IMG/VR virus record: IMGVR_UViG_3300005512_003938
Span: 1 to 34,464 of that record
DNA from: a virus
Lineage: Duplodnaviria > Caudoviricetes
Direction: 5' to 3' (one strand)
DNA length: 34,464 bases
The notes under the pieces were generated by a model that saw only the letters and a program-made list of their open reading frames with translations, did no database searches and was not told the DNA's origin. Below, in pieces: positions 1 to 34,464 of this stretch. Within the stretch, counting starts at the first letter, position 1. Each line of letters opens with the position of its first letter. A program made the position numbers and the translations under genes.

Positions 1-776
1 TCTCCATGCAGCATCCAATCTAGTAAACGGTTTAAGAGTGGCAAATGATACATGAGCCACGGCCACATGATCGAGATAATATAGATGAGGTTGATCAGCG
101 CCCATCTCACGAGCACCCACCAGACCCACTCTTTAATACGTCGGTCGCGCGCTCGGCTCTTGACCTTCTTAGGACCGCCGAGCCGCTTGACCTTCTCACT
201 GCCTGGTGGTGGCTGCAGAGATTCAATCCTGACCCCCACAGCATAGATCGTCTGAGGTTCTCGGACACCCTTGAATCGGTAAAGACCAACGCAGACATAG
301 CGCGTTCCTTTCGGTGTGTAGCCATTGACTCGACCTTTGATATGCTTGAAGGCCTCCTCAGTGAGCAGGACCTGACCAGCCTGACATAAGCTCATGGTTC
401 GCGCCGCTATATTCTTAGCCACGCCCTCCAACTCGACCGGCTTAGCGCCGACCATCACGTCAAGCTCATCCTGTGTCACCTCTGCGACGATGCCGACATG
501 TAGACCTATCCTCGTATTAATCTTGATCTTAGGCGGTATGTCACGCTGATAGATCAGGCAGAAGTTTACCGCGTTAATGGGGGATTCAAACGAGAGCAGG
601 AAGCCATCAGACCTGTCTATCTCTCGACCACTGAAACGATGCATGAGAGAGCGGGTGAGCCTGTCGTGATACTGCAGCCATCGCGCCGCCTTCATGGGGC
701 CGACTCTGGAAACGAACGCAGTTGAGCCGATGAGATCGAGGAGGACTATGGCTAATCGTCTCTCTTTGATCTCCAT
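1..776 (-). CDS. Class III (adenylate/guanylate-type) nucleotidyl cyclase with predicted C-terminal transmembrane segment; 3' end runs off the window (>258 aa)
   Basis: Not in ORF track (no stop in window). Hand translation from ATG at 776 (SD AGGAG upstream): MEIKERRLAIVLLDLIGSTAF...GREIDRSDGFLLSF...TRIGLHVG...GAKPVELEGVAKNIAARTMSLCQAGQVLLT...YRFKGVREPQTIYAV... Has both metal Asp (D14, D57), RIGLHxG, NxAAR (N122, R126), GQVL and FKG motifs. Hydrophobic WVWWVLVRWALINLIYIISIMWPWLMY near the C-end. Confidence 0.88.
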   Translation of the reverse strand, partial: MEIKERRLAIVLLDLIGSTAFVSRVGPMKAARWLQYHDRLTRSLMHRFSGREIDRSDGFLLSFESPINAVNFCLIYQRDIPPKIKINTRIGLHVGIVAEVTQDELDVMVGAKPVELEGVAKNIAARTMSLCQAGQVLLTEEAFKHIKGRVNGYTPKGTRYVCVGLYRFKGVREPQTIYAVGVRIESLQPPPGSEKVKRLGGPKKVKSRARDRRIKEWVWWVLVRWALINLIYIISIMWPWLMYHLPLLNRLLDWMLHG

Positions 777-779
777 GAT

Positions 780-935
780 TCACTCCTGATCGACATCAAT
801 ATCCACACCGACGCTACCACATTCACCATGATTATTGAGATCACTATCAGGGTCGCTATGCTCATCTTCATCCTCACATATACAGTCTACTCGGCCACAC
901 TGAGCGCATAGGGTCTCGTCGAGGTCCTCACACAT
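780..935 (-). CDS. 51-aa acidic Cys-rich peptide (possible Zn-binding)
   Basis: ATG overlaps the thyX-like stop (TGATG at 937-933) and it ends 3 nt before the cyclase ATG. MCEDLDETLCAQCGRVDCICEDEDEHSDPDSDLNNHGECGSVGVDIDVDQE has CxxC-x4-CxC. Below the ORF-track cutoff. Confidence 0.7.
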   Translation of the reverse strand: MCEDLDETLCAQCGRVDCICEDEDEHSDPDSDLNNHGECGSVGVDIDVDQE

Positions 936-1597
936 CAGTGAGACTCTTCGTAGGCTAGATCACCGAGGAGCGCGCCGAGGCTGATGGGGAAATGCTTCAT
1001 TAAGATACAGCGCGCCGCTTTAGCAACAGCCAAAGTCTCAGGCTGAGTGTAAGGTGTTAGCCTGAGCCTGAGGAACTCAACCCAGTGGATGAGATTGCCA
1101 CTCATCCAAAAGTGAGAATAGAGGCTCTGAGGTAGCACAGCACGCGCCTGACTTTTGGTCACCCCTGAGGCTAACATTAACTCGTAGAACGCGGCGCAGT
1201 TTGTGTGATGCTGATCCCAGCACTCAAGCCAGTGATCGGACTCCTCAACGGTCTCATCATCGTCACAGCCACGGAGCTCCTCAGGTGTCCACAGGCTGAT
1301 GTTGGGTGCTATGCTTTGATCCTCCTCTGTATATGTGAAGTCATCAGACTCCATAATCTGAGACCGTACAAATAGAGGAACACTCATCTTAAGAGTAGCG
1401 GCGCAGTGACTAAACGGTGCGGTCTCCCCCTGCCTCACTAGATACTCGATGAGCTTAACATCTCGATCAGTAATCTGCAGCGGAGAGGAGGTAGACTGAT
1501 CAAAGTAGCTCACCCGCGCTGATCTAGCTGGCGTCGAGTCATACCCCATAGAGGCGATGTAGCGCACTTCACCCACGTCATCATTGTAGATTCTCAT
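935..1597 (-). CDS. thyX: ThyX (FAD-dependent thymidylate synthase)-fold protein with degenerate catalytic motif
   Basis: Keeps ThyX hallmarks (ARVSY, LIEYL, PFSH, VPLFVRSQ, QARAVLPQ, SGNL..W..FLRLR, QPE), but the RHR-x7-SxRY motif reads ESD-x7-DQSI. Confidence 0.8.
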   Translation of the reverse strand: MRIYNDDVGEVRYIASMGYDSTPARSARVSYFDQSTSSPLQITDRDVKLIEYLVRQGETAPFSHCAATLKMSVPLFVRSQIMESDDFTYTEEDQSIAPNISLWTPEELRGCDDDETVEESDHWLECWDQHHTNCAAFYELMLASGVTKSQARAVLPQSLYSHFWMSGNLIHWVEFLRLRLTPYTQPETLAVAKAARCILMKHFPISLGALLGDLAYEESH

Positions 1598-1817
1598 TAG
1601 ACCTTCTCAGCTCTCTTAAGACTTTGGCGTAGAGCAGACGCTCAGCCCTCTGCTCTGGTGTCTCGTTAAGCATATACTCTTTTCTCTGCTGTCTCGCCTT
1701 CTCTTTCACATGTGGTCTAGCGCGATATGCTCTCATATATGCTGCTCGCTTGGCCTTGACCTCTGGACGAGCTCGATACTCTCTCTTCCGTCTCTTTTGT
1801 GCTTCGCTTAATGCCAT
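1581..1817 (-). CDS. 78-aa highly basic helical protein, possible nucleic-acid binder
   Basis: TGATG-coupled to the terL stop and overlaps the thyX-like start. Arg/Lys-rich with internal repeat YRARPEVK/YRARPHVK. Confidence 0.7.
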   Translation of the reverse strand: MALSEAQKRRKREYRARPEVKAKRAAYMRAYRARPHVKEKARQQRKEYMLNETPEQRAERLLYAKVLRELRRSNENLQ

Positions 1818-3184
1818 CAGAAACTTCTCCTCTTTGCTCCACCCACCTTCACACGACGACTCTGAGAGGCAGATGAGCGCGGCTGATATTGGCGTTGATC
1901 AACTATGGAGTCAGCCCACCTCCAAGTGATGCAGTCATAGCGGAGAGCGTCAAGCGGATCCTCACGCCCGTCCTTCTTAGGTTGCTCTTTGTTGTCCCAG
2001 CCGTAGCTCATCAGAGCTTTCCTGATGCTGTTACCCATAGCTCGCTCGCCGCCATCCCATACCTCTTTAGTGATGAGGTATTGACCACGAGCAAAAGCAC
2101 GCTTAAGGCGCTGCACCCCGTTGAGGATGTCGGTCCTGATCGGGTCAGTGTTAGACCTGAGAGGCATACCGAGCCCATCAGGAGGCGCGGCGCGCATCGC
2201 TCGGAATGCTGAGCGCCCTGTCTGGTCGTTCCTTGCTCGGCCTGCTTTATCGGCTACTCCATTATCAAGCCATATGCGATCACTTGGTGCGGAGCTCCTC
2301 AACGAGCGCGGCCAAGCTATGGCGAGGATGAGTGTGGCGAGCTGAGAGGTGGTGACCTCTTGGGGGTTGATCTCGTGACAGATGACATCAGCGCCGAGCT
2401 CCTCGTCATGAACGATAATCAACACACTCGGCTTTCTGAATCCCCAGTCTATGGCGATTCGACCGCTCATGGTCGGCTTGTACTCCCAGCCGCTGATGAC
2501 GTGGCGCGACTCGTCGAACTCAGAGTAGATGAGCCCTGATGGTGGTCGAGGCCTGTTCATCACCATGGCCTCTCGCTCGGCCTCAGGCAAGAGCTTAGTG
2601 GCCTCAAACCACTCGGCGCTGAGGTTGGCGCTGTTTACATAGCTAGTGAAGAGGAGAGGCTGACACTCTGCCTCCTCAGCGAGATGGCACCACCAAGCGC
2701 CGCTCACTGGCAGGCCCACAAGGATCATTATCGGGCTCGGTCCTGCTCGAAGACGACCCATAGCTTTATGAGCTACCTCGGCGCTCAACGTCTGACACTC
2801 ATCGATAAGACAGACGCCAGAGGTGATATTGAGACCCTCAAGAGGGTTATGGGTCGCGTCTCGCGTCCCTGGTCGATAATACGAGCGACACCAAACAGTC
2901 GAGCCATTCGGCGCGCTCCACTGCCTAAGAGTATGGTTATACGTCCAGCCCAAAGGTGAGAGCCACTTCTCCATCTCAGGCATAAGCACAGAGTTATAAC
3001 GTGGGTTAGTGTCAGTGACGAGCAATGATGACGTGTTAGGCCTCACCCTCGACACGAAGAGGAGAGCGAAGACAAGCGCCGAGGTCTTACCACTACCCCA
3101 CCCACAACGAGCCGCGATGATCCGCTCATTCTGCGCTATGCGTGAGATGATCCCATGCTGCAGCTCGTTGAGGTTGATCGTCAC
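1817..3184 (-). CDS. terL: Terminase large subunit
   Basis: Walker A CGWGSGKT, Walker B CLIDE, nuclease motifs IAIDWG and EDPLDALRY. Probable start is GTG at 3184 (GTGA overlap with upstream ORF stop, GGAG SD) rather than 3238. Confidence 0.92.
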   Translation of the reverse strand: MTINLNELQHGIISRIAQNERIIAARCGWGSGKTSALVFALLFVSRVRPNTSSLLVTDTNPRYNSVLMPEMEKWLSPLGWTYNHTLRQWSAPNGSTVWCRSYYRPGTRDATHNPLEGLNITSGVCLIDECQTLSAEVAHKAMGRLRAGPSPIMILVGLPVSGAWWCHLAEEAECQPLLFTSYVNSANLSAEWFEATKLLPEAEREAMVMNRPRPPSGLIYSEFDESRHVISGWEYKPTMSGRIAIDWGFRKPSVLIIVHDEELGADVICHEINPQEVTTSQLATLILAIAWPRSLRSSAPSDRIWLDNGVADKAGRARNDQTGRSAFRAMRAAPPDGLGMPLRSNTDPIRTDILNGVQRLKRAFARGQYLITKEVWDGGERAMGNSIRKALMSYGWDNKEQPKKDGREDPLDALRYDCITWRWADSIVDQRQYQPRSSASQSRRVKVGGAKRRSF

Positions 3185-3435
3185 CCTATTGGCTCCATAC
3201 CCCATAGAGTCACGCGCCACCTCACCGAGGTCGTCCAACCATGAGCGCTCACGTCTGTGGTGATCACATCAGCGCCAACCTCCACATCAACATGATCCAT
3301 GTGGACGACGTTGGTCTCATCACCTTTCTCATCAGAGGCCAAGACGATGTGGTCACCGCCCTCGATTCGATAGCTCGACTTCTTCTTGCTCGGCGTCCTA
3401 GTCCATGAGCGAGTCAGGAGACATCTAGTCATCAT
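3181..3435 (-). CDS. Hypothetical ~84-aa protein between terS and terL
   Basis: ATGATG at 3435 overlaps the end of terS, and its stop overlaps the terL GTG. Coupling on both sides supports a real gene. Confidence 0.6.
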   Translation of the reverse strand: MMTRCLLTRSWTRTPSKKKSSYRIEGGDHIVLASDEKGDETNVVHMDHVDVEVGADVITTDVSAHGWTTSVRWRVTLWGMEPIG

Positions 3436-3865
3436 TCTCTTCTGTGTCATTTGAAGCCTCTTCATATGGTTTTGATATCTGCTCGAGCATAGAGATCACG
3501 ATGTCATCAGCCGCCTTGCTGGAGTCGTTGACGTTGACCTCAACCTCTCGCTTAGCGCCCCATCGATCAGGATAACGGCGCTCTAGGATCCAAGCATTGC
3601 CCCGCCAGTCCTGCTTGGCTTCTGCGTTCTCTTTGAGTCTCTGCAGTTGAACCGCCTCAGCAAAGTCTTTAGCGGCCTCAACCTCTTCAGTCCACTCACC
3701 ATCAGGCCCTGACTTTTCAAGCCAGCGATAATAAGTAGTCTTACCGATACCGCTGACAGAGCAAGCGGCCTCGATGCTCATGCCTGTTCTGATGTTGTCT
3801 AACAAGGCCTCTCGGCGCTGTCGGCGTTTAGCCTTGCGTTTCTCGTTCGTGGATGAGTCTGACAT
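3425..3865 (-). CDS. terS: Terminase small subunit (HTH type)
   Basis: N-terminal HTH (GMSIEAACSVSGIGKTTYYRWL) and DWRGNAWILERRYPDRWG motif typical of TerS-like proteins; lies upstream of terL. Confidence 0.82.
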   Translation of the reverse strand: MSDSSTNEKRKAKRRQRREALLDNIRTGMSIEAACSVSGIGKTTYYRWLEKSGPDGEWTEEVEAAKDFAEAVQLQRLKENAEAKQDWRGNAWILERRYPDRWGAKREVEVNVNDSSKAADDIVISMLEQISKPYEEASNDTEENDD

Positions 3866-4055
3866 TCTCTAACGTCTCCCTTATATGCTCTAATAGGTCT
3901 CTACTTTGACTATACAGATCATAATCTTGAGGGTCATCAAGGTCGAGGTCTTGCTCGAGCTGGATCACTAGGAGCCGCTCGAGCTCGGCGAGCGTTGGGT
4001 CATCTTCATCGCGCGCGCGCGTTGTTGGTTCCGTTGGTTCCATTTTTATAGACAT
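3828..4055 (-). CDS. Hypothetical acidic protein (~75 aa)
   Basis: In-frame ATG at 4055 preceded by GAGAGG; overlaps the terS start. Confidence 0.55.
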   Translation of the reverse strand: MSIKMEPTEPTTRARDEDDPTLAELERLLVIQLEQDLDLDDPQDYDLYSQSRDLLEHIRETLENVRLIHERETQG

Positions 4056-4091
4056 ATACCTCTCTCTTTCCCCATCGGGGCGCATTAAGTT

Positions 4092-4505
4092 TTAACGTCG
4101 TGTGAACCCATCCCCATAAGGAGCGTCCTGAGGCTGACTAAATGGCGTCTCAGGTCTGATCTGAGGCTCAGGAGGCAGGAACTGATCAGGCTCTTTAGCT
4201 GACAAGTCCCACCACTTGATGACCCTCACCTCCCATTGTCGGCGCTGTTGGCTGTCTTGGTAGCTCTTGAGTTGTCCCTCGACGTGGACTTTAACCCCTT
4301 TAGTGAGCTGAGCAGCTGCGCGGTTGGCGCTGTGTCCCCAGACCTTACAGCTATGCCACTCGGTCGACTTCTGCCACATGCCTGTCGAGTCCTTATAGCT
4401 CTCATGTGTAGCCAGCCTGAAATAACAATAAGGCTGACCCGATTGGGTTTGCCTGAGCTCGGCGTCTTGGCCGACGTTGCCGCAGAGTGTAATCCTGTTG
4501 ATCAT
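4092..4505 (-). CDS. ssb: Single-stranded DNA-binding protein
   Basis: MINRITLCGNVGQDAELR, FRLAT, TEWH, KGVKVHVEGQL are classical SSB OB-fold motifs; the tail lacks the canonical DDIPF. Confidence 0.93.
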   Translation of the reverse strand: MINRITLCGNVGQDAELRQTQSGQPYCYFRLATHESYKDSTGMWQKSTEWHSCKVWGHSANRAAAQLTKGVKVHVEGQLKSYQDSQQRRQWEVRVIKWWDLSAKEPDQFLPPEPQIRPETPFSQPQDAPYGDGFTRR

Positions 4506-9209: not shown

Positions 9210-9695
9210 TCAGTCATACATGCTCACTATCATAATCGATGTGACAACTACAGTAACAGCGCTAACTGAAGCAAGAGCCCATTTGTAGTGATCTCTGCTC
9301 TTAGCGTTGGTCGATGCTAGAAGCTCGGACGCTGAGAGCTGTCTCTTCAGAGCGCCGATGAGCTTAGCGTCTTCGGCCTTCCGCTTGGATGCTTCAGCCT
9401 TGGCCTTGGTCAGCATCTTCTCGCTCTGCTCCTGGCAGGTAACAGCGGTCGCGGTGACAGCCGCTTGGCAGATATCACCCTGACCAAGCACAACGTCCTT
9501 GAGGCGTAGCCATGAGTTGACATCAAGAGTCACAAGCACCTCATGATCAATGATTAAGCGCTCACCCTTAATGGCTGGCAGATACTCACCCATTGGGATT
9601 GTCAGCGCGTCATCAAGCTCGAGGTCAGTGTCAGCGCCGACGGTCACCGCTGGCAGTGGCTGTAGCAGAGCTAGGGTCAGTGTGATGGCGAGCAT
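9210..9695 (-). CDS. Exported coiled-coil protein with C-terminal TM (spanin-like)
   Basis: Signal-like MLAITLTLALLQP, helical middle with 2 Cys, C-terminal WALASVSAVTVVVTSIMIV; no lipobox. Confidence 0.55.
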   Translation of the reverse strand: MLAITLTLALLQPLPAVTVGADTDLELDDALTIPMGEYLPAIKGERLIIDHEVLVTLDVNSWLRLKDVVLGQGDICQAAVTATAVTCQEQSEKMLTKAKAEASKRKAEDAKLIGALKRQLSASELLASTNAKSRDHYKWALASVSAVTVVVTSIMIVSMYD

Positions 9696-10006
9696 AGAGC
9701 CCCCCTGACATCTAGCGCACGTTGAACTCGCTCTCTACATATAGGCTCACACTTGAGGATGCACTCACCCTCTTTCAATGCTCGGCACGCGATGAGCTCC
9801 GCTTCGGTCTTGGTGACCTTGCCCTCTAGCTCAAGGATCCGCGTTGACTTCTTGTCGATCTCGACCTGCATCTCTTCACGAGCTGCCCGAGCTCCTGAAG
9901 CGACACCGACCGACCACACACCGAAGATCAGCACAGCGCCAACTACAGCGGCCACGATGTACACCGCCGCCTCTTTGGGTATCTCTGGCAGGTTTACATT
10001 AATCAT
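9677..10006 (-). CDS. i-spanin (Rz)-like protein
   Basis: N-terminal TM (AAVYIVAAVVGAVLIFGVWSVGV), coiled coil, Cys-rich C-terminus; overlaps the next gene by 19 nt. Confidence 0.58.
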   Translation of the reverse strand: MINVNLPEIPKEAAVYIVAAVVGAVLIFGVWSVGVASGARAAREEMQVEIDKKSTRILELEGKVTKTEAELIACRALKEGECILKCEPICRERVQRALDVRGALCSPSH

Positions 10007-15217: not shown

Positions 15218-15613
15218 TTAAGCGTTGGTTGTGGCATTGAAGCCAGCATAAACGATAAACGTGTCAGAGCCTGCAGCCTTCTTATATGCCACTGAGGTCA
15301 CTGAGTTACCGCTCACGAGCGCTTGCACATCGACATCAAATGAACCGAGCACAGGAATGACACCATCAGTGTTAGCGACGCCATCACCCGCCGCGACACG
15401 AGCGCGCAACTTACCATAGCTTACCGTGTCGGTTGATCCGCTGACGAACTGAACATAAGCGAACTTCAACCCGCTTGAGAGCTGTGTGCCTGTCCGAGTG
15501 TCATAAAAGTCCTCAGAGGCGAGGGTGTGCCAGTCTGTATCGTTGACCGCTGAGGCGTTGTAGGTGGCGAGGTATCCACCAGCGTGGATAGGATATTGAA
15601 CTCCGAGTCTCAT
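15218..15613 (-). CDS. Hypothetical beta-rich (probably virion) protein, 131 aa
   Basis: ATGA-coupled to the holin; precedes the tail fibre. Confidence 0.6.
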   Translation of the reverse strand: MRLGVQYPIHAGGYLATYNASAVNDTDWHTLASEDFYDTRTGTQLSSGLKFAYVQFVSGSTDTVSYGKLRARVAAGDGVANTDGVIPVLGSFDVDVQALVSGNSVTSVAYKKAAGSDTFIVYAGFNATTNA

Positions 15614-15885
15614 GGCTTCTCCAGTGTAGTCTCAGGTTGGGGGGTTGTTGGGGGGATTGGTTGAGGCTGTGCTACAGCCGCTTGCTCTTTTCCCTGCGGA
15701 GCTCCTGCGCGCTTTGAAAACACGTTGGCTCCTGCGTAGACAAGGAACAAGGTATCGATGAGGCCTAAGACCTCAGTGTGAGCTTTATCGAGGAGCGCTA
15801 GAAGTAGGCATGAGGCTAGAGTCGCATAGAACGCTGTAGCCTTTCGCCCTCCTGCCCGCTCGGTCACAGTCTGCTTATCACTCAT
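15610..15885 (-). CDS. Putative holin (2 hydrophobic helices), 91 aa
   Basis: Likely start MSDKQ at 15885 overlapping the endolysin end. GGRK followed by two hydrophobic segments and YAGANV. Confidence 0.68.
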   Translation of the reverse strand: MSDKQTVTERAGGRKATAFYATLASCLLLALLDKAHTEVLGLIDTLFLVYAGANVFSKRAGAPQGKEQAAVAQPQPIPPTTPQPETTLEKP

Positions 15886-16531
15886 CGAAGTCCTCAGCGA
15901 GTAGACGGTAAACGAAGGCGACCTCATCAAGGCTACGCTCGCGAGCGATAACGCCCTCACCATGAGAGCCATCACCTAGCGTCCCGTGGGCGTTGCCCTC
16001 GAGCGTCTCGAAACGACCATCAATGGGGGCCACTCGGCAGAGCGTGATGTGATCACCCCATGTAGCGCGCGCTGAGGAGTACACGACCACGATGTCACCA
16101 GGGAGCATGTCACGTGGCTCGATCTTTCGTGAGGTCTGTGACCAGTTAGAATAGAGGCGATAGCATGAAGGGAAGATCTTTTGACGAGTCTTGAACTTGA
16201 CAGCCCGATAGCAGAACGCCGCGAAAGCGCCACACCAAGCGAACTGACCATTCTTGACGTACTCTTTCTCCCACGTCCAGCCGATGCCCTCCATGCTGCG
16301 GATGTATGTATTGATCCGTTGGTCTGGGTCCTCAATGGTCGAGGACCACTCTGCCAGAGCGCGGTCGATAGCAACTGAGCTCTGTTCACTGCGCTGAGGT
16401 CGAGGGTAGTTCACGAGGCGCTCAGGGAGCTCCTGAAGATCAAGCTTCGCCTGACCAAGTGAACGAGAGAGCCGCCTTACGTCGTGCTCAAGCTCTGAGA
16501 TGGTGGCTTCAAGGTCTGCTTTAGTAGGCAT
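15878..16531 (-). CDS. CHAP/NlpC-P60-type peptidoglycan hydrolase (endolysin) with N-terminal coiled coil
   Basis: AWCGAFAAFCY (catalytic Cys), PGDIVV, GDHITL (His), TLEGN. Confidence 0.82.
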   Translation of the reverse strand: MPTKADLEATISELEHDVRRLSRSLGQAKLDLQELPERLVNYPRPQRSEQSSVAIDRALAEWSSTIEDPDQRINTYIRSMEGIGWTWEKEYVKNGQFAWCGAFAAFCYRAVKFKTRQKIFPSCYRLYSNWSQTSRKIEPRDMLPGDIVVVYSSARATWGDHITLCRVAPIDGRFETLEGNAHGTLGDGSHGEGVIARERSLDEVAFVYRLLAEDFDE

Positions 16532-31176: not shown

Positions 31177-33135
31177 TTAAACTCCAAAGGCCTTGGTGTA
31201 GTAGTCTGGGTTCTCAGCGCGGAACATGTCGAGCGCCTCGCTATAGGTCACGCTCTTCTCTTTCTTAAGAGCGAGCACTGCATCATTGAGGCTTTGGCGG
31301 CTGATCTCCTCACCGCTCGCGCCGTGTCCGACCTCCTGAAGAGGTACAGCTGAAGAGGTGGCACGCTCAGAGAACATCTGCCAAAACTCAGGCTGAGCGT
31401 CTCGGAGATCCCAAGCCTTGCCTGCGACAGTCTGCTCAGCAGGGCTGATCTTGCCCTCATTGAGAAGGTTGCTCACTGCTTGGTCACGCTTGATAGCGTC
31501 ACGCTCAGCGGTGAGCTCTGCGAGTGACTCGCGAAGTAGAGCGACCTCAGAGAGGAGGTTAACGTCAGCCTCGACGCTCTCACTCATCTTCTGATAGCCC
31601 ATCTTCTTCTCTTTGTCTTCGTCCTCAGCCTTCATCTCAGCCTTGTCGTCTTCTGACTTCTCGGCCATCTCAGCCTTGTCGTCATCAGACTTCTCAGCTG
31701 TGATGTTAGCCTCAGCGTCTTCTTTCATTTCTTTGATGCGAGCTTCGAGCTCCTTGACCATCTCATCCTTGGCGGCGAGCATGGCGCGGAGCTCCTCAAC
31801 TGACATAGAATCGAGATTATCCATCTCTTCTAGCCTTTCGTTTAGGGTTACTCGGTCGATCTTGTCGTGAGACTGCGCCGGCCGAGGAGTAAGGGTGATC
31901 GCGAGGAGTTGAGCCGATCCGATCTGCTCGCCTCCGCTACGGTCGAATACATCACCAGTGATGAACTCAGGACTAGACCACAGCACCCCACCCGCCTCAG
32001 AGACGACCTTAAGGCCGCGCTCGTTGTAGGCAGGTACAGCGTAGAGGCCATCCTCTCTGAGCTCTAGATCAACGATGAGCCCTAGTGCATTGCCACTCTC
32101 AGGAGGTGCAGGGGGGCCACCGTTAAAAGGTGAGGTTGCATGTTGCCAGTCAATGATCACTGGATCTGCTGACTTGCGCTCTGAGTAGACGCGCATCATC
32201 TCACGCAGCATGTCTACATCTATCTCTTTACCAATAGCCTCACCGCTCATACGCGAGGAGACTTGACCAAGAGAGAGCGTCTTAAATGGTCGACCGATGG
32301 TGAGCCCATCAGGTACATCATAGCTGGGAGCCTCTGAGAGCTGGATAGCTTCACCATAGGCCCTGAGTGATTGAGCTTTATTATCTGCTGAGTCCATCTG
32401 TCGAACTACCTTTCTAGCCCAAGCGTAACCTGCATCACCGCCCCAGCCATGCCACGCCTGCCAGCCCTTGCCCTGAGTGTTCCACGTGGAACCTTCTTTA
32501 TCGACCTCATGGCGGGTGAAGTAGGCGAGCATCCTTTTGACGGTATCGGGTGAGAGCTGCTTACCTGCTTTGAGGTCACGAGCTCTAGCGATCCCCACAG
32601 CAGTCATCCCGCGCTGACTCTCTGGCTTATCAGCCCTAACCTCAAGCGCTCGCTCAGCCGCGTCTCTGACGCCCTGAGGTGGGGTGAAGTCAATGTGACT
32701 ATACTTATCAGGGATGTTAAGGAGCTCGGCCTTGGCCTCTGCCTCTCGTCGTTGGGGGTGACCTTTAGGCAATAAGTCTAGATCGCTCGTGTAAGCCTTC
32801 TTGCGCTGACCTGTAGCGACCAACTTTAGGAAGGTTTTGACGCGAGCAAGCGCCCAACCATTCCGAGTCATCCCCGGTCGATGGCTAACACTGAAAGCAC
32901 CCGCGCCACGTCTAAACACAGCTTTGAGGGTGCCGAGGTCAACACGTCGTGAGGCCTTGGTGAATCTAGCGTTATGGGTGTCGCGCATGTTCTCAAGAGC
33001 TTTGGTGGCTTGCTCGCCGATCTCGATACCACCACGAGCGCCACTAGCTGAGCCCTTGGGATTCGTGGCGCTACCTTTGCGCCTATCCTTTGGGGGTGCT
33101 GGCGTCTGTGCTTTGGTGCGCTTACGCTTTACCAT
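31177..33135 (-). CDS. Mu-like prohead protease/scaffold fused to two N-terminal accessory domains (652 aa)
   Basis: Probable start MVKRKR at 33135 (GGAGG SD, overlaps portal end). PVIIDWQHAT...DGLYA...WSSPEF...ITLTPRP protease motifs; acidic coiled-coil scaffold. Confidence 0.82.
   Translation of the reverse strand: MVKRKRTKAQTPAPPKDRRKGSATNPKGSASGARGGIEIGEQATKALENMRDTHNARFTKASRRVDLGTLKAVFRRGAGAFSVSHRPGMTRNGWALARVKTFLKLVATGQRKKAYTSDLDLLPKGHPQRREAEAKAELLNIPDKYSHIDFTPPQGVRDAAERALEVRADKPESQRGMTAVGIARARDLKAGKQLSPDTVKRMLAYFTRHEVDKEGSTWNTQGKGWQAWHGWGGDAGYAWARKVVRQMDSADNKAQSLRAYGEAIQLSEAPSYDVPDGLTIGRPFKTLSLGQVSSRMSGEAIGKEIDVDMLREMMRVYSERKSADPVIIDWQHATSPFNGGPPAPPESGNALGLIVDLELREDGLYAVPAYNERGLKVVSEAGGVLWSSPEFITGDVFDRSGGEQIGSAQLLAITLTPRPAQSHDKIDRVTLNERLEEMDNLDSMSVEELRAMLAAKDEMVKELEARIKEMKEDAEANITAEKSDDDKAEMAEKSEDDKAEMKAEDEDKEKKMGYQKMSESVEADVNLLSEVALLRESLAELTAERDAIKRDQAVSNLLNEGKISPAEQTVAGKAWDLRDAQPEFWQMFSERATSSAVPLQEVGHGASGEEISRQSLNDAVLALKKEKSVTYSEALDMFRAENPDYYTKAFGV
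31633..31698. repeat. 33-bp tandem duplication in the scaffold region
   Basis: Encodes AEKSDDDKAEM/AEKSEDDKAEM. Confidence 0.8.
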
Positions 33136-34464
33136 CTCGACGCCTCCTGATGAGCTGCTCAGTGAGAGCTGATACACCACCACCCGCACCGACTGAGGAG
33201 ATTCTAGAGAGCGGTGAGCGCTCGGCGTCCTCAGGTAGATCACCCGCGCCAAGTCGATCTCTGATAGCTCGCTCTAGCTCATCATCAGGAGTAATAAGGC
33301 CTGCTTGTACCAGACCAGGGAGAGCGCCGAGTGACTCAGCGAGCTCATCAGTATCAAGCCCTGAGTGAGTCAGCTTGGGTAACTTCGATGGATCGACTGA
33401 TCCATAGTTCCAACGGATCAAGCGTCCGATGGTTCCAGCTCCTCGACGGTCAACACCACTTACAGCCGAGGCGATCACATCACATAGATTGATAGCCGCG
33501 CGCCTAAATACCATATGATGTATCTCACCAACAGATCGAGCGCCCGTCTCAGTGTTGCCGAGGTCGGCGAACTGCGAGAGGAAGGCAGCGGCTATCTGTG
33601 AATCGCACTTAGTGATGATGTTGATGGGTCCATCTGCGTAGACGTTGGGTGTGGCCACATACGTCTCAAACTTAACAGCAGGATTCTCAACGAGGTAGCT
33701 CTGTTCTGCCGAGACGAACGCCTGAGCCTGAGCCTCTGCGTCGTTGATCATGGCGTCAATGTCACCATCACTCAGGCCGATACTCTCAGCGCTCGCGCGG
33801 TCAACCACCACTTTAGGAGTAGGCACCGCCCAACGGTCGAGACCAACACACATGAGATTAGACACCCTCTGCTTAGTGCGCCACCACCACCAAACAGGCC
33901 GAAGCATCCCCACGCCCTCGAAGTTGCTACCTGTCTTATTGAGGGTGAGCAAGAGGAGCTTATTGGCAGGTATCGGCTCAGGGGTGTAGGTGATCCCCAC
34001 TGTGTTCTGGATCACACCGTCGAGCTGCTGAGCGTCTCGGCTCAACCACTTCTGATGAGCGCTTGGCTCTCGGTCGGCGTAATGACTGAGCCAGACTCTG
34101 ACGTTACCCTCTGAGTCAGGGCATACCTTATAGATCTCTTCGGCGTATCTGTAGCCGAGCGGGACGAACTCAAAGAGGTAGGCTAGTTGATCTTCCCAAG
34201 ATATAGACATCTGGCCGGCATAGCCATCGAAGCCCCAACACTCATTTGCAAAGCGCGCGAGCTCCTCAGCTACTGGATCATTCTCAATCCCTGACACGAA
34301 GCGCCAAGAGGCAGAAAGCAGGGTCTGCCTGAGCATGTGCCACGAGCGTCTGACGATGGGGTCAGTTCTGAGCATCTCCTCAGCCTCTTGAACCCAGTTG
34401 AGTCCAGTGAGTTGAGCGTTCTGCTCTTTGCCGGTGATTGTGCCACCGCTGATCTGAGTGCCAG
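33122..34464 (-). CDS. Portal protein (DUF935 / Mu gp29-like), 5'-truncated by the window edge
   Basis: Frame stays open upstream of 34375 (GTQISGGTITGKEQNAQLTGLNWVQEAEEM). EMLRTDP, GYRYAEEIY, NFEGVGMLR, GARSVGEIH, LIRWNYG motifs. Confidence 0.9.
   Translation of the reverse strand, partial: GTQISGGTITGKEQNAQLTGLNWVQEAEEMLRTDPIVRRSWHMLRQTLLSASWRFVSGIENDPVAEELARFANECWGFDGYAGQMSISWEDQLAYLFEFVPLGYRYAEEIYKVCPDSEGNVRVWLSHYADREPSAHQKWLSRDAQQLDGVIQNTVGITYTPEPIPANKLLLLTLNKTGSNFEGVGMLRPVWWWWRTKQRVSNLMCVGLDRWAVPTPKVVVDRASAESIGLSDGDIDAMINDAEAQAQAFVSAEQSYLVENPAVKFETYVATPNVYADGPINIITKCDSQIAAAFLSQFADLGNTETGARSVGEIHHMVFRRAAINLCDVIASAVSGVDRRGAGTIGRLIRWNYGSVDPSKLPKLTHSGLDTDELAESLGALPGLVQAGLITPDDELERAIRDRLGAGDLPEDAERSPLSRISSVGAGGGVSALTEQLIRRRRDGKA

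Follow-up and report, generated by a model that had tools for sequence, protein, structure and literature searches.

Do marine phages write a second messenger of their own into the cells that they infect? To our knowledge, cyclic-nucleotide signalling in phage conflict is nearly all host-side (Pycsar, CBASS) or involves phage enzymes that destroy the signal. The question is raised by a minus-strand gene at the left end of the IMG/VR virus record IMGVR_UViG_3300005512_003938, a linear record of 34,464 bp from an uncultured marine phage, estimated to be 97% complete. The whole record was analysed and is called the window here. An initial annotation had proposed, from the sequence, that this gene encodes a class III nucleotidyl cyclase with a membrane anchor.

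The gene belongs to the phage, its product is modelled with the cyclase homology fold followed by a predicted membrane helix, and it is strictly paired with a second gene, called the partner here, whose small product has two transmembrane helices (2-TM). The best reading, to which we give a probability of about 0.55, is that of an active, tail-anchored, homodimeric cyclase which likely produces cyclic GMP (cGMP) or, less likely, cyclic AMP (cAMP), and which acts together with the partner. Widespread marine phages carry in this way their own membrane cyclase tied to one small, extremely conserved membrane protein. Should the enzyme prove active, an infected cell would receive a second messenger written by the phage, and the two genes (about 420 codons) would offer a compact system for asking what effects a virus-made cyclic nucleoside monophosphate (cNMP) has. 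A large cellular family with the same pair of Asp and Glu residues is so far uncharacterised, and activity would assign a function to its cyclase domain too.

The cyclase gene

The open reading frame (ORF) is a genuine gene and evolves under strong purifying selection. Of the 1231 candidates from the search for relatives, 714 qualify as homologues at E ≤ 1e-3, and the ratio of nonsynonymous to synonymous substitution rates (dN/dS) is 0.045-0.099 in the 21 pairs formed by seven close copies; the observation is therefore not a chance one. The initial annotation described the gene as hidden and its C-terminus as still to be recovered, and neither description was maintained. JGI already annotates homologues as 'class 3 adenylate cyclase'. 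Regarding the C-terminus, the frame leaves the window at its left end after 258 amino acids, and just one residue and the stop codon are absent. Fourteen related viral loci carry cyclases that are 79-98% identical to that of the window. In the six closest loci with the whole gene (92-96% identical) the protein ends in ...HGD or ...NGD at 259 amino acids, which means that the window cyclase has no long missing C-terminus. In seven more distant loci, 258 codons were read from an in-frame point 5' of the match, with the start unchecked.

Fold and catalytic residues

In the AlphaFold2 model (64-sequence alignment; pLDDT 90.6, pTM 0.79) the cyclase homology fold is present. A Foldseek search of the PDB with this model returned 188 chains at E ≤ 1e-3, and every one listed is an adenylyl or guanylyl cyclase of class III. 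Ma1120 and Rv1900c match best, with TM-scores of 0.88-0.91 (normalised to the target) and rmsd values of 1.7-2.4. The family profile, compared with solved structures, has its best match (E 1.9e-18) with mycobacterial domains; this profile contains short forms only, since the same search with the wider alignment A1 was swamped by matches to tetratricopeptide repeats (TPR). The NCBIfam model of the LipJ cyclase also recognises the protein (E 3.1e-15), whereas scans of the window cyclase with PADLOC and PHROGs gave 0 families each.

The four catalytic residues named in the initial annotation (Asp14, Asp57, Asn122 and Arg126) stand at the corresponding positions when the protein is aligned with solved class III cyclases, so that the class III assignment and the intact catalytic set were both borne out. 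Asp57 (codon 606..608) aligns with the second metal Asp; the codons of Asn122 and Arg126 are 411..413 and 399..401. Conservation was read from an alignment of the window protein with the best 120 of the 714 homologues (63-95% identical), and the stretches R51-E-I-D-R-S-D-G58 and E115-L-E-G118, together with A111, K112, K121, N122 and R126, are invariant in all 121 sequences. S18 and T19 are likewise invariant except in a single row, the same one, which is gapped at D14, S18 and T19. Lys169 presumably corresponds to the gamma-phosphate Lys of canonical cyclases.

Class III cyclases select ATP by means of Lys plus Asp or Thr, and GTP by means of Glu plus Cys; guanylyl cyclases are thus marked by an acidic residue in place of the Lys. 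The shortened loop and the non-canonical Glu115 noted in the initial annotation were both found in the alignments. Asp54 stands at the substrate-specifying Lys position and is followed by a one-residue deletion, the loop being one residue shorter than in Ma1120 and Rv1900c. At the place of Asp54, Ma1120 has Lys and Rv1900c has Asn, which we take to be its equivalent of the Lys position. Glu115 aligns with the Asp position of Rv1900c.

A wider table of 48 chosen viral and cellular cyclase domains (19 short forms and 29 cellular ones) shows how far these residues are kept: D14, D54, D57, K112, K121 and R126 are constant in 48/48 and E115 in 45/48. Asn122 is found in 16 of the 19 short forms, as against one of the 29 cellular domains, 22 of which have Pro. 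Lys112 and Lys121 are invariant in viral and cellular members, though neither is among the canonical catalytic residues of class III; Lys112 might perhaps stand in for the lost substrate-binding Lys.

Linker and membrane anchor

Behind the domain, the initial annotation had seen a basic linker and a Trp-rich hydrophobic helix, and both are there. Residues 190-216 include 11 Lys or Arg, residues 216-244 include 6 Trp, and AlphaFold2 places helices at 214-244 and 246-257. The cyclase is thus predicted to be a tail-anchored membrane protein.

The partner gene

The cyclase had been considered without a partner, and a 2-TM gene that appears to be translationally coupled to it was overlooked. The partner protein has about 158 amino acids, and the ATG of its gene overlaps the stop of the cyclase gene by 11 nt in 13 of 13 loci. 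The partner lies directly 3' of the cyclase in all 13 close loci that reach far enough, and the two genes are paired as well in 11 of the 11 divergent loci that do so (found with the divergent cyclase P0258), one of them in reversed order. When the search was made from the side of the partner, a cyclase was found directly upstream in 78 of 80 loci (the best 80 of 292 viral stretches), the other two having 7 and 103 nt of room. Several contigs recur among these three sets of loci. The divergent loci are on contigs of 15.7-205 kb with 29-47% GC, and the other genes near the pair include those for UvsX, PhoH, a Dda-like helicase and a repair enzyme of the 2OG type. The pairing of cyclase and partner genes is strict across unrelated phage backbones. 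Judged from the overlap and the adjacency of the two genes, the partner appears to be obligate, and a coupled partner that is always kept adjacent argues against a stand-alone enzyme.

The partner is also the better conserved of the two proteins: in the divergent loci it is 63-72% identical (to the partner of locus L003), as against 39-66% for the cyclase (to the window cyclase). It has 1448 homologues at E ≤ 1e-3, the best 120 of which are at least 73% identical. Its N-terminus is basic; two hydrophobic helices with many Gly, Ser and Ala residues follow, and then a long helix of coiled-coil character. The AlphaFold2 model is poor (pLDDT 68.7, pTM 0.28) and has helices at 7-39, 47-68 and 73-125. 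The positive-inside rule, applied by eye, suggests that both the N- and the C-terminus are in the cytoplasm, and the coiled coil is predicted to lie there beside the catalytic domain.

Several leads to the nature of the partner were obtained, and at the level of sequence comparison none of them amounts to an assignment. In Pfam, PF18142 (the 2-TM effector domain SLATT_fungal) ranks first for all 35 homologues, with a best E of 2.4e-5. The score is 21.1 bits, under the cut-off of 26.5; the unrelated AbrB membrane family also matches 35/35, and the 35 homologues scanned are not independent because they are at least 73% alike. SLATT has been predicted to be a nucleotide-responsive pore former (PMC7159879). 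The hhalign comparison gave a probability of 78.6% (E 1.7e-5, 53 columns) for a transmembrane (TM) protein of Vibrio phage 1.275.O that is encoded just downstream of a DD-peptidase; the match is weak and covers the TM hairpin only. A search of the ESM Atlas with the partner gave unnamed viral clusters only, and nothing was found among the GenBank phages (INPHARED) at E ≤ 1e-3. At E ≤ 5 a Streptomyces tectivirus matched (E 0.9), and this match was dismissed; the Vibrio phage protein also came up and was retained as a weak lead. PADLOC was run on six partner variants: five had no match, and one stray match at E 0.0047 was dismissed as well.

As for a role in lysis, the endolysin of the window (15878..16531) is about 15 kb from the partner locus and has its own small hydrophobic neighbour, a candidate holin distinct from the partner. 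The partner need not, therefore, be the main holin.

Relatives and known systems

An exhaustive profile-free search with the cyclase gave 5709 proteins at E ≤ 1e-3, 126 of them at E ≤ 1e-30. The nearest long proteins are of two kinds: TIGR04510-type proteins of 849-901 amino acids (Tahibacter, Marilutibacter, Coralloluteibacterium, Rudaea) and cyclase-ATPase-TPR proteins of about 1000 (Rubrivivax, Caldimonas). Both kinds are 33-47% identical to the phage cyclase over the domain, and the nearest cellular relatives are of the Xanthomonadales and Burkholderiales type. In a maximum-likelihood tree of 48 domains (no outgroup, midpoint-rooted), the 19 short forms are split off by a 100/100 branch; five of these, the window included, have a demonstrated viral context and the others come from a library without context.

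The likeness to TIGR04510, which the initial annotation had put forward, stands for the domain and its motifs and fails for the full-length family. The NCBIfam model matches at E 1.3e-44 over its positions 7-204 of 814, with 152.9 bits as against a cut-off of 400, and the phage protein has no TPR ectodomain. With the TIGR04510 proteins of Xanthomonadales the phage domain has in common 39-45% identity, the IDxxDG and GAKxxExEGxxK motifs, the Asp/Glu pair and the PPPxSxK linker, which is followed directly by a single TM helix in both. The cellular members continue for some 600 residues after this helix (the TPR ectodomain), whereas the phage protein stops at 259 amino acids; it differs also in having Asn122 where they mostly have Pro, and in its phage-gene neighbours. 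Going by the name of the family, peptide-modification genes nearby presumably belong to the definition of TIGR04510. The neighbourhood of the phage cyclase consists of TerL, ThyX, a 51-aa ORF, the partner and the portal, without peptide-modification genes. The phage enzyme thus resembles, in sequence, the cytoplasmic half plus TM helix of TIGR04510 receptor-type cyclases minus the sensor ectodomain. The domain is already of a known kind; what is new is the short, sensor-less, tail-anchored form paired with a conserved 2-TM protein and distributed over different marine phage lineages. No description of such a gene pair was found in the literature.

Among solved structures, Rv1900c/LipJ (1YBT, 1YBU) and Ma1120 (4WP8, 5D15) are closest and share with the phage enzyme a compact domain with a short arm. 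Rv1900c departs, like the phage enzyme, from the Lys/Asp pair. Both are, in contrast to it, soluble domains of cellular proteins, at about 24% identity.

Uncultivated pelagiphages have been reported to carry an 'adenylate cyclase' auxiliary gene beside curli (type VIII secretion system, T8SS) genes (PMC9599517). Like the present cassette, it is a cyclase gene in uncultivated marine phages of more than one family; compared by description only, it differs in its company (CsgG/F/A, FecR and a histidine kinase) and in its reported alphaproteobacterial origin. Neither curli, FecR nor kinase genes were found near the cassette, in the window or among 30 ORFs in five divergent loci.

Product and proposed mechanism

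We consider it quite probable that the cyclase is enzymatically active. Given activity, the chances that the product is cGMP are about even; cAMP is a distinctly less probable product, and another or a mixed product is less probable still. Related to this, XC_0250 of Xanthomonas campestris is a protein of 886 amino acids; its cyclase domain is N-terminal (32-191), and it has three TPRs. A fragment of residues 1-220 turns GTP into cGMP in vitro but does not use ATP, and in X. campestris this cGMP acts on a host cNMP-binding diguanylate cyclase (PMC3770947). The size and architecture of XC_0250 fit the Xanthomonadales TIGR04510 proteins, and the numbers of the residues mutated fit the spacing counted by eye in two of these; XC_0250 probably belongs among them.

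In the mechanism proposed here, the tail-anchored cyclase would form a homodimer on the cytoplasmic side of the host inner membrane and produce cGMP there, so that the phage would make its own signal molecule; its working companion would be the 2-TM coiled-coil protein of the overlapping downstream gene. Since it has no sensor ectodomain, the cyclase would either be always on or be under the control of the partner in trans. A bolder form of this idea, which we consider doubtful, is a second-messenger switch in the membrane: a late build-up of cGMP or of another cNMP would make the Gly-rich 2-TM partner permeabilise the membrane and so time lysis or exclude other phages. The trigger may be the nucleotide, or the cyclase itself by way of the cytoplasmic coiled coil, and the pair may be a self-contained cassette of signal and pore that has spread over unrelated marine phage lineages.

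Several points weigh against an active, cGMP-producing cyclase that works with the partner. The match to Pfam PF00211 (E 1.7e-4) has 21.6 bits and falls 0.3 below the gathering cut-off of 21.9; two relatives, P0254 (32.1 bits) and P0255 (29.7 bits), clear it. The pair Asp54/Glu115 is neither Lys/Asp nor Glu/Cys, and for this reason the base cannot be read from it. Pro replaces Asn122 in most cellular relatives, whose chemistry may therefore differ in detail. XC_0250 is placed among the TIGR04510-type proteins from its architecture and residue numbering, not from its own sequence. Pfam recognises no nucleotide-binding domain in the partner (no cNMP-binding match at E ≤ 0.1), and the timing of expression, presumably late in infection, is taken from gene position alone.

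Alternative explanations

The most serious competitor, although an unlikely one, is the reading of the initial annotation, that the cyclase floods the cell with cAMP or cGMP for receptors of the host (CRP-type regulators, cNMP-gated enzymes), the 2-TM protein being only an anchor, a chaperone or a regulator. This would agree with a partner without a nucleotide-binding domain, with the pelagiphage precedent and with the action of XC_0250 on a host enzyme (PMC9599517 and PMC3770947), but a stand-alone enzyme needs no always-adjacent, coupled partner more conserved than itself, and the curli, FecR and kinase genes that accompany the pelagiphage gene were not seen in the window or in five divergent loci. 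A Pycsar-like module for exclusion or abortive infection, in which a pyrimidine or other cNMP would make the 2-TM protein kill or depolarise the cell against competing phages, is improbable, and the Pycsar-like option that the initial annotation allowed for received no support from the Pycsar models, none of which matches the window protein. Pycsar effectors carry a cNMP-binding domain fused to TM helices or to TIR; Pfam recognises none in the partner, and the cassette cyclase is membrane-anchored and lies in a block of phage packaging and head genes. PADLOC finds no match for the window cyclase or for five of six other short-form cyclases (from cassettes or from the protein library), the exception being the divergent cassette cyclase of locus L030, which matches PycC weakly (E 3e-5, 21.5 bits). 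The window has no integrase, so that a role in defence by a resident prophage is not evident. What speaks for such a module is the layout, a class III-type cyclase with an adjacent small membrane protein as in PycC plus PycTM, and the SLATT match of the partner, with the predicted nucleotide-responsive pore (PMC7159879), but that match is below its cut-off and AbrB matches all 35 homologues too.

A catalytically silent nucleotide binder, which would soak up the immune cyclic nucleotides of the host as a decoy or sponge, is very improbable. Conflict systems are known to include inactive cyclase domains (PMC7159879), and the unusual specificity pair and the cellular relatives without the canonical Asn could be explained in this way, but the metal Asps, Arg126, Asn122 and Lys169 are kept essentially always at 63-95% identity, and a binder has no need for them. 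That the cyclase is host or contaminant DNA at a contig end has a negligible probability even though the gene runs right up to the end of a linear record. Inside viral contigs of 35 kb the gene again stands between TerL/ThyX and the portal, the GC content of the gene (53.2%) equals that of the window (53.3%), and two metagenome contigs continue some 200 nt beyond the first base of the window. A pattern-limited scan of 185,579 species genomes (one per species) found no close relative, giving only cyclases of Leptospiraceae and other spirochaetes at 22-32% identity.

Genomic context

The window encodes TerS, TerL, portal, Mu-like protease, scaffold, major head protein, endolysin, SSB, a DnaC-like loader and RecT. 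The initial annotation had allowed that the gene might belong to flanking host DNA; the cyclase gene is the phage's own, as TerL and ThyX precede it in 14 of 14 close viral contigs, and the partner and then the portal follow on its 3' side wherever these contigs reach. The coordinates of the main features are collected in Table 1.

Table 1. Features of the cyclase locus and of selected other genes (window coordinates)
Feature	Position	Strand	Basis or remark
Partner, start (ATGGAGA)	1..7	-	Overlaps cyclase end; remainder past contig end; full gene L003:6770-7246
Cyclase gene	3..776	-	ATG at 776; 258 of 259 codons, last residue and stop past window end
Trp-rich membrane helix (217-244) and short C-terminal helix (246-258), predicted	3..128	-	Hydropathy, AlphaFold2
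Pro-rich basic linker, residues ~186-216, conserved	129..221	-	Alignments; PPPxSxK motif, also before the TM helix in cellular TIGR04510 proteins
Class III cyclase homology domain, residues ~5-185	222..764	-	PF00211 over residues 9-178; Foldseek
Lys169 of FKG motif	270..272	-	Invariant in 26-sequence short-form alignment; 47/48 in wider table
Glu115 (second specificity position), Lys121, Asn122, Arg126 (transition-state residues)	399..434	-	
Asp54-Arg-Ser-Asp57	606..617	-	121/121; profile alignment to Ma1120 and Rv1900c
Asp14, first metal-binding Asp	735..737	-	120/121 homologues, the other a gap; aligned to 1YBT
Cys-rich acidic 51-aa ORF, directly upstream	780..935	-	CxxC...CxC pattern; optional companion
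Ribosome-binding site of cyclase gene (AGGAG)	783..787	-	7-11 nt 5' of ATG
ThyX thymidylate synthase, upstream neighbour	935..1597	-	Pfam Thy1, 1.1e-26
Large terminase TerL, start of gene block	1817..3238	-	phrog_5653, 9.7e-6
ORF just 3' of endolysin, candidate holin distinct from partner	15610..15975	-	One stretch over hydropathy threshold; second by eye after internal Met
Mu-type portal	33122..34375	-	PF06074, 2.9e-23

Because the portal follows the partner in the relatives, the two ends of the window are taken to adjoin across about 0.6 kb of missing DNA (by comparison with L003); the far end (34376..34464) begins about 87 nt 5' of the portal ATG. No terminal overlap between the ends, no tRNAs and no integrase were seen in the window. 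Metagenome contigs over this region (marine, estuary, aquaculture, plankton) are small and variable pieces, and such short, variable contigs at the break may be the reason why assemblies stop there.

In the block that runs from TerL through the partner, adjacent genes overlap or are 3 nt apart, and positions 1..4200 hold no terminator-like site, as against 2.1 expected in shuffled sequences. From this spacing and the lack of a terminator-like site, the cassette is predicted to be co-expressed with the packaging and head genes.

The 51-aa ORF ends 3 nt before the cyclase start. It is present in 7 of the 14 close loci (62-92% identical by tblastn), and it is absent from the group of loci at 80% identity, where a gap of about 186 nt takes its place. 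Pfam gives no family for it beyond DUF6788, at E 0.026 and for the L003 copy.

ThyX is 53-89% conserved among the relatives, as against 88-97% for TerL and 79-98% for the cyclase, and its low conservation suggests allele replacement. ThyX is also found 1-4 kb from the cassette in three unrelated loci (L030, L031, L034).

In INPHARED, no cultured or GenBank phage carries the cyclase gene. The TerL of the window has one match there, at 24.8%, the DNA of locus L036 has none, and a viral scan with P0255 gave no relative. One candidate, MT838110.1 (L119, 2992..5670; 27.7% identity), was set aside as being of a different kind: its ORF codes for a cyclase-ATPase-TPR protein of 892 amino acids, on a scaffold marked UNVERIFIED. 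The scaffold comes from a gut sample, is GC-rich by eye and is probably bacterial DNA.

Two other regions of the window deserve a mention. A 691-aa ORF for the Mu-like protease and scaffold (31177..33252, minus strand) shares 131 nt with the end of the portal gene and carries a DUF5824 match. Two small minus-strand ORFs of 161 and 109 amino acids (9210..10006) have hydrophobic ends, a coiled-coil look and no family match, and could code for spanin-like or other membrane proteins.

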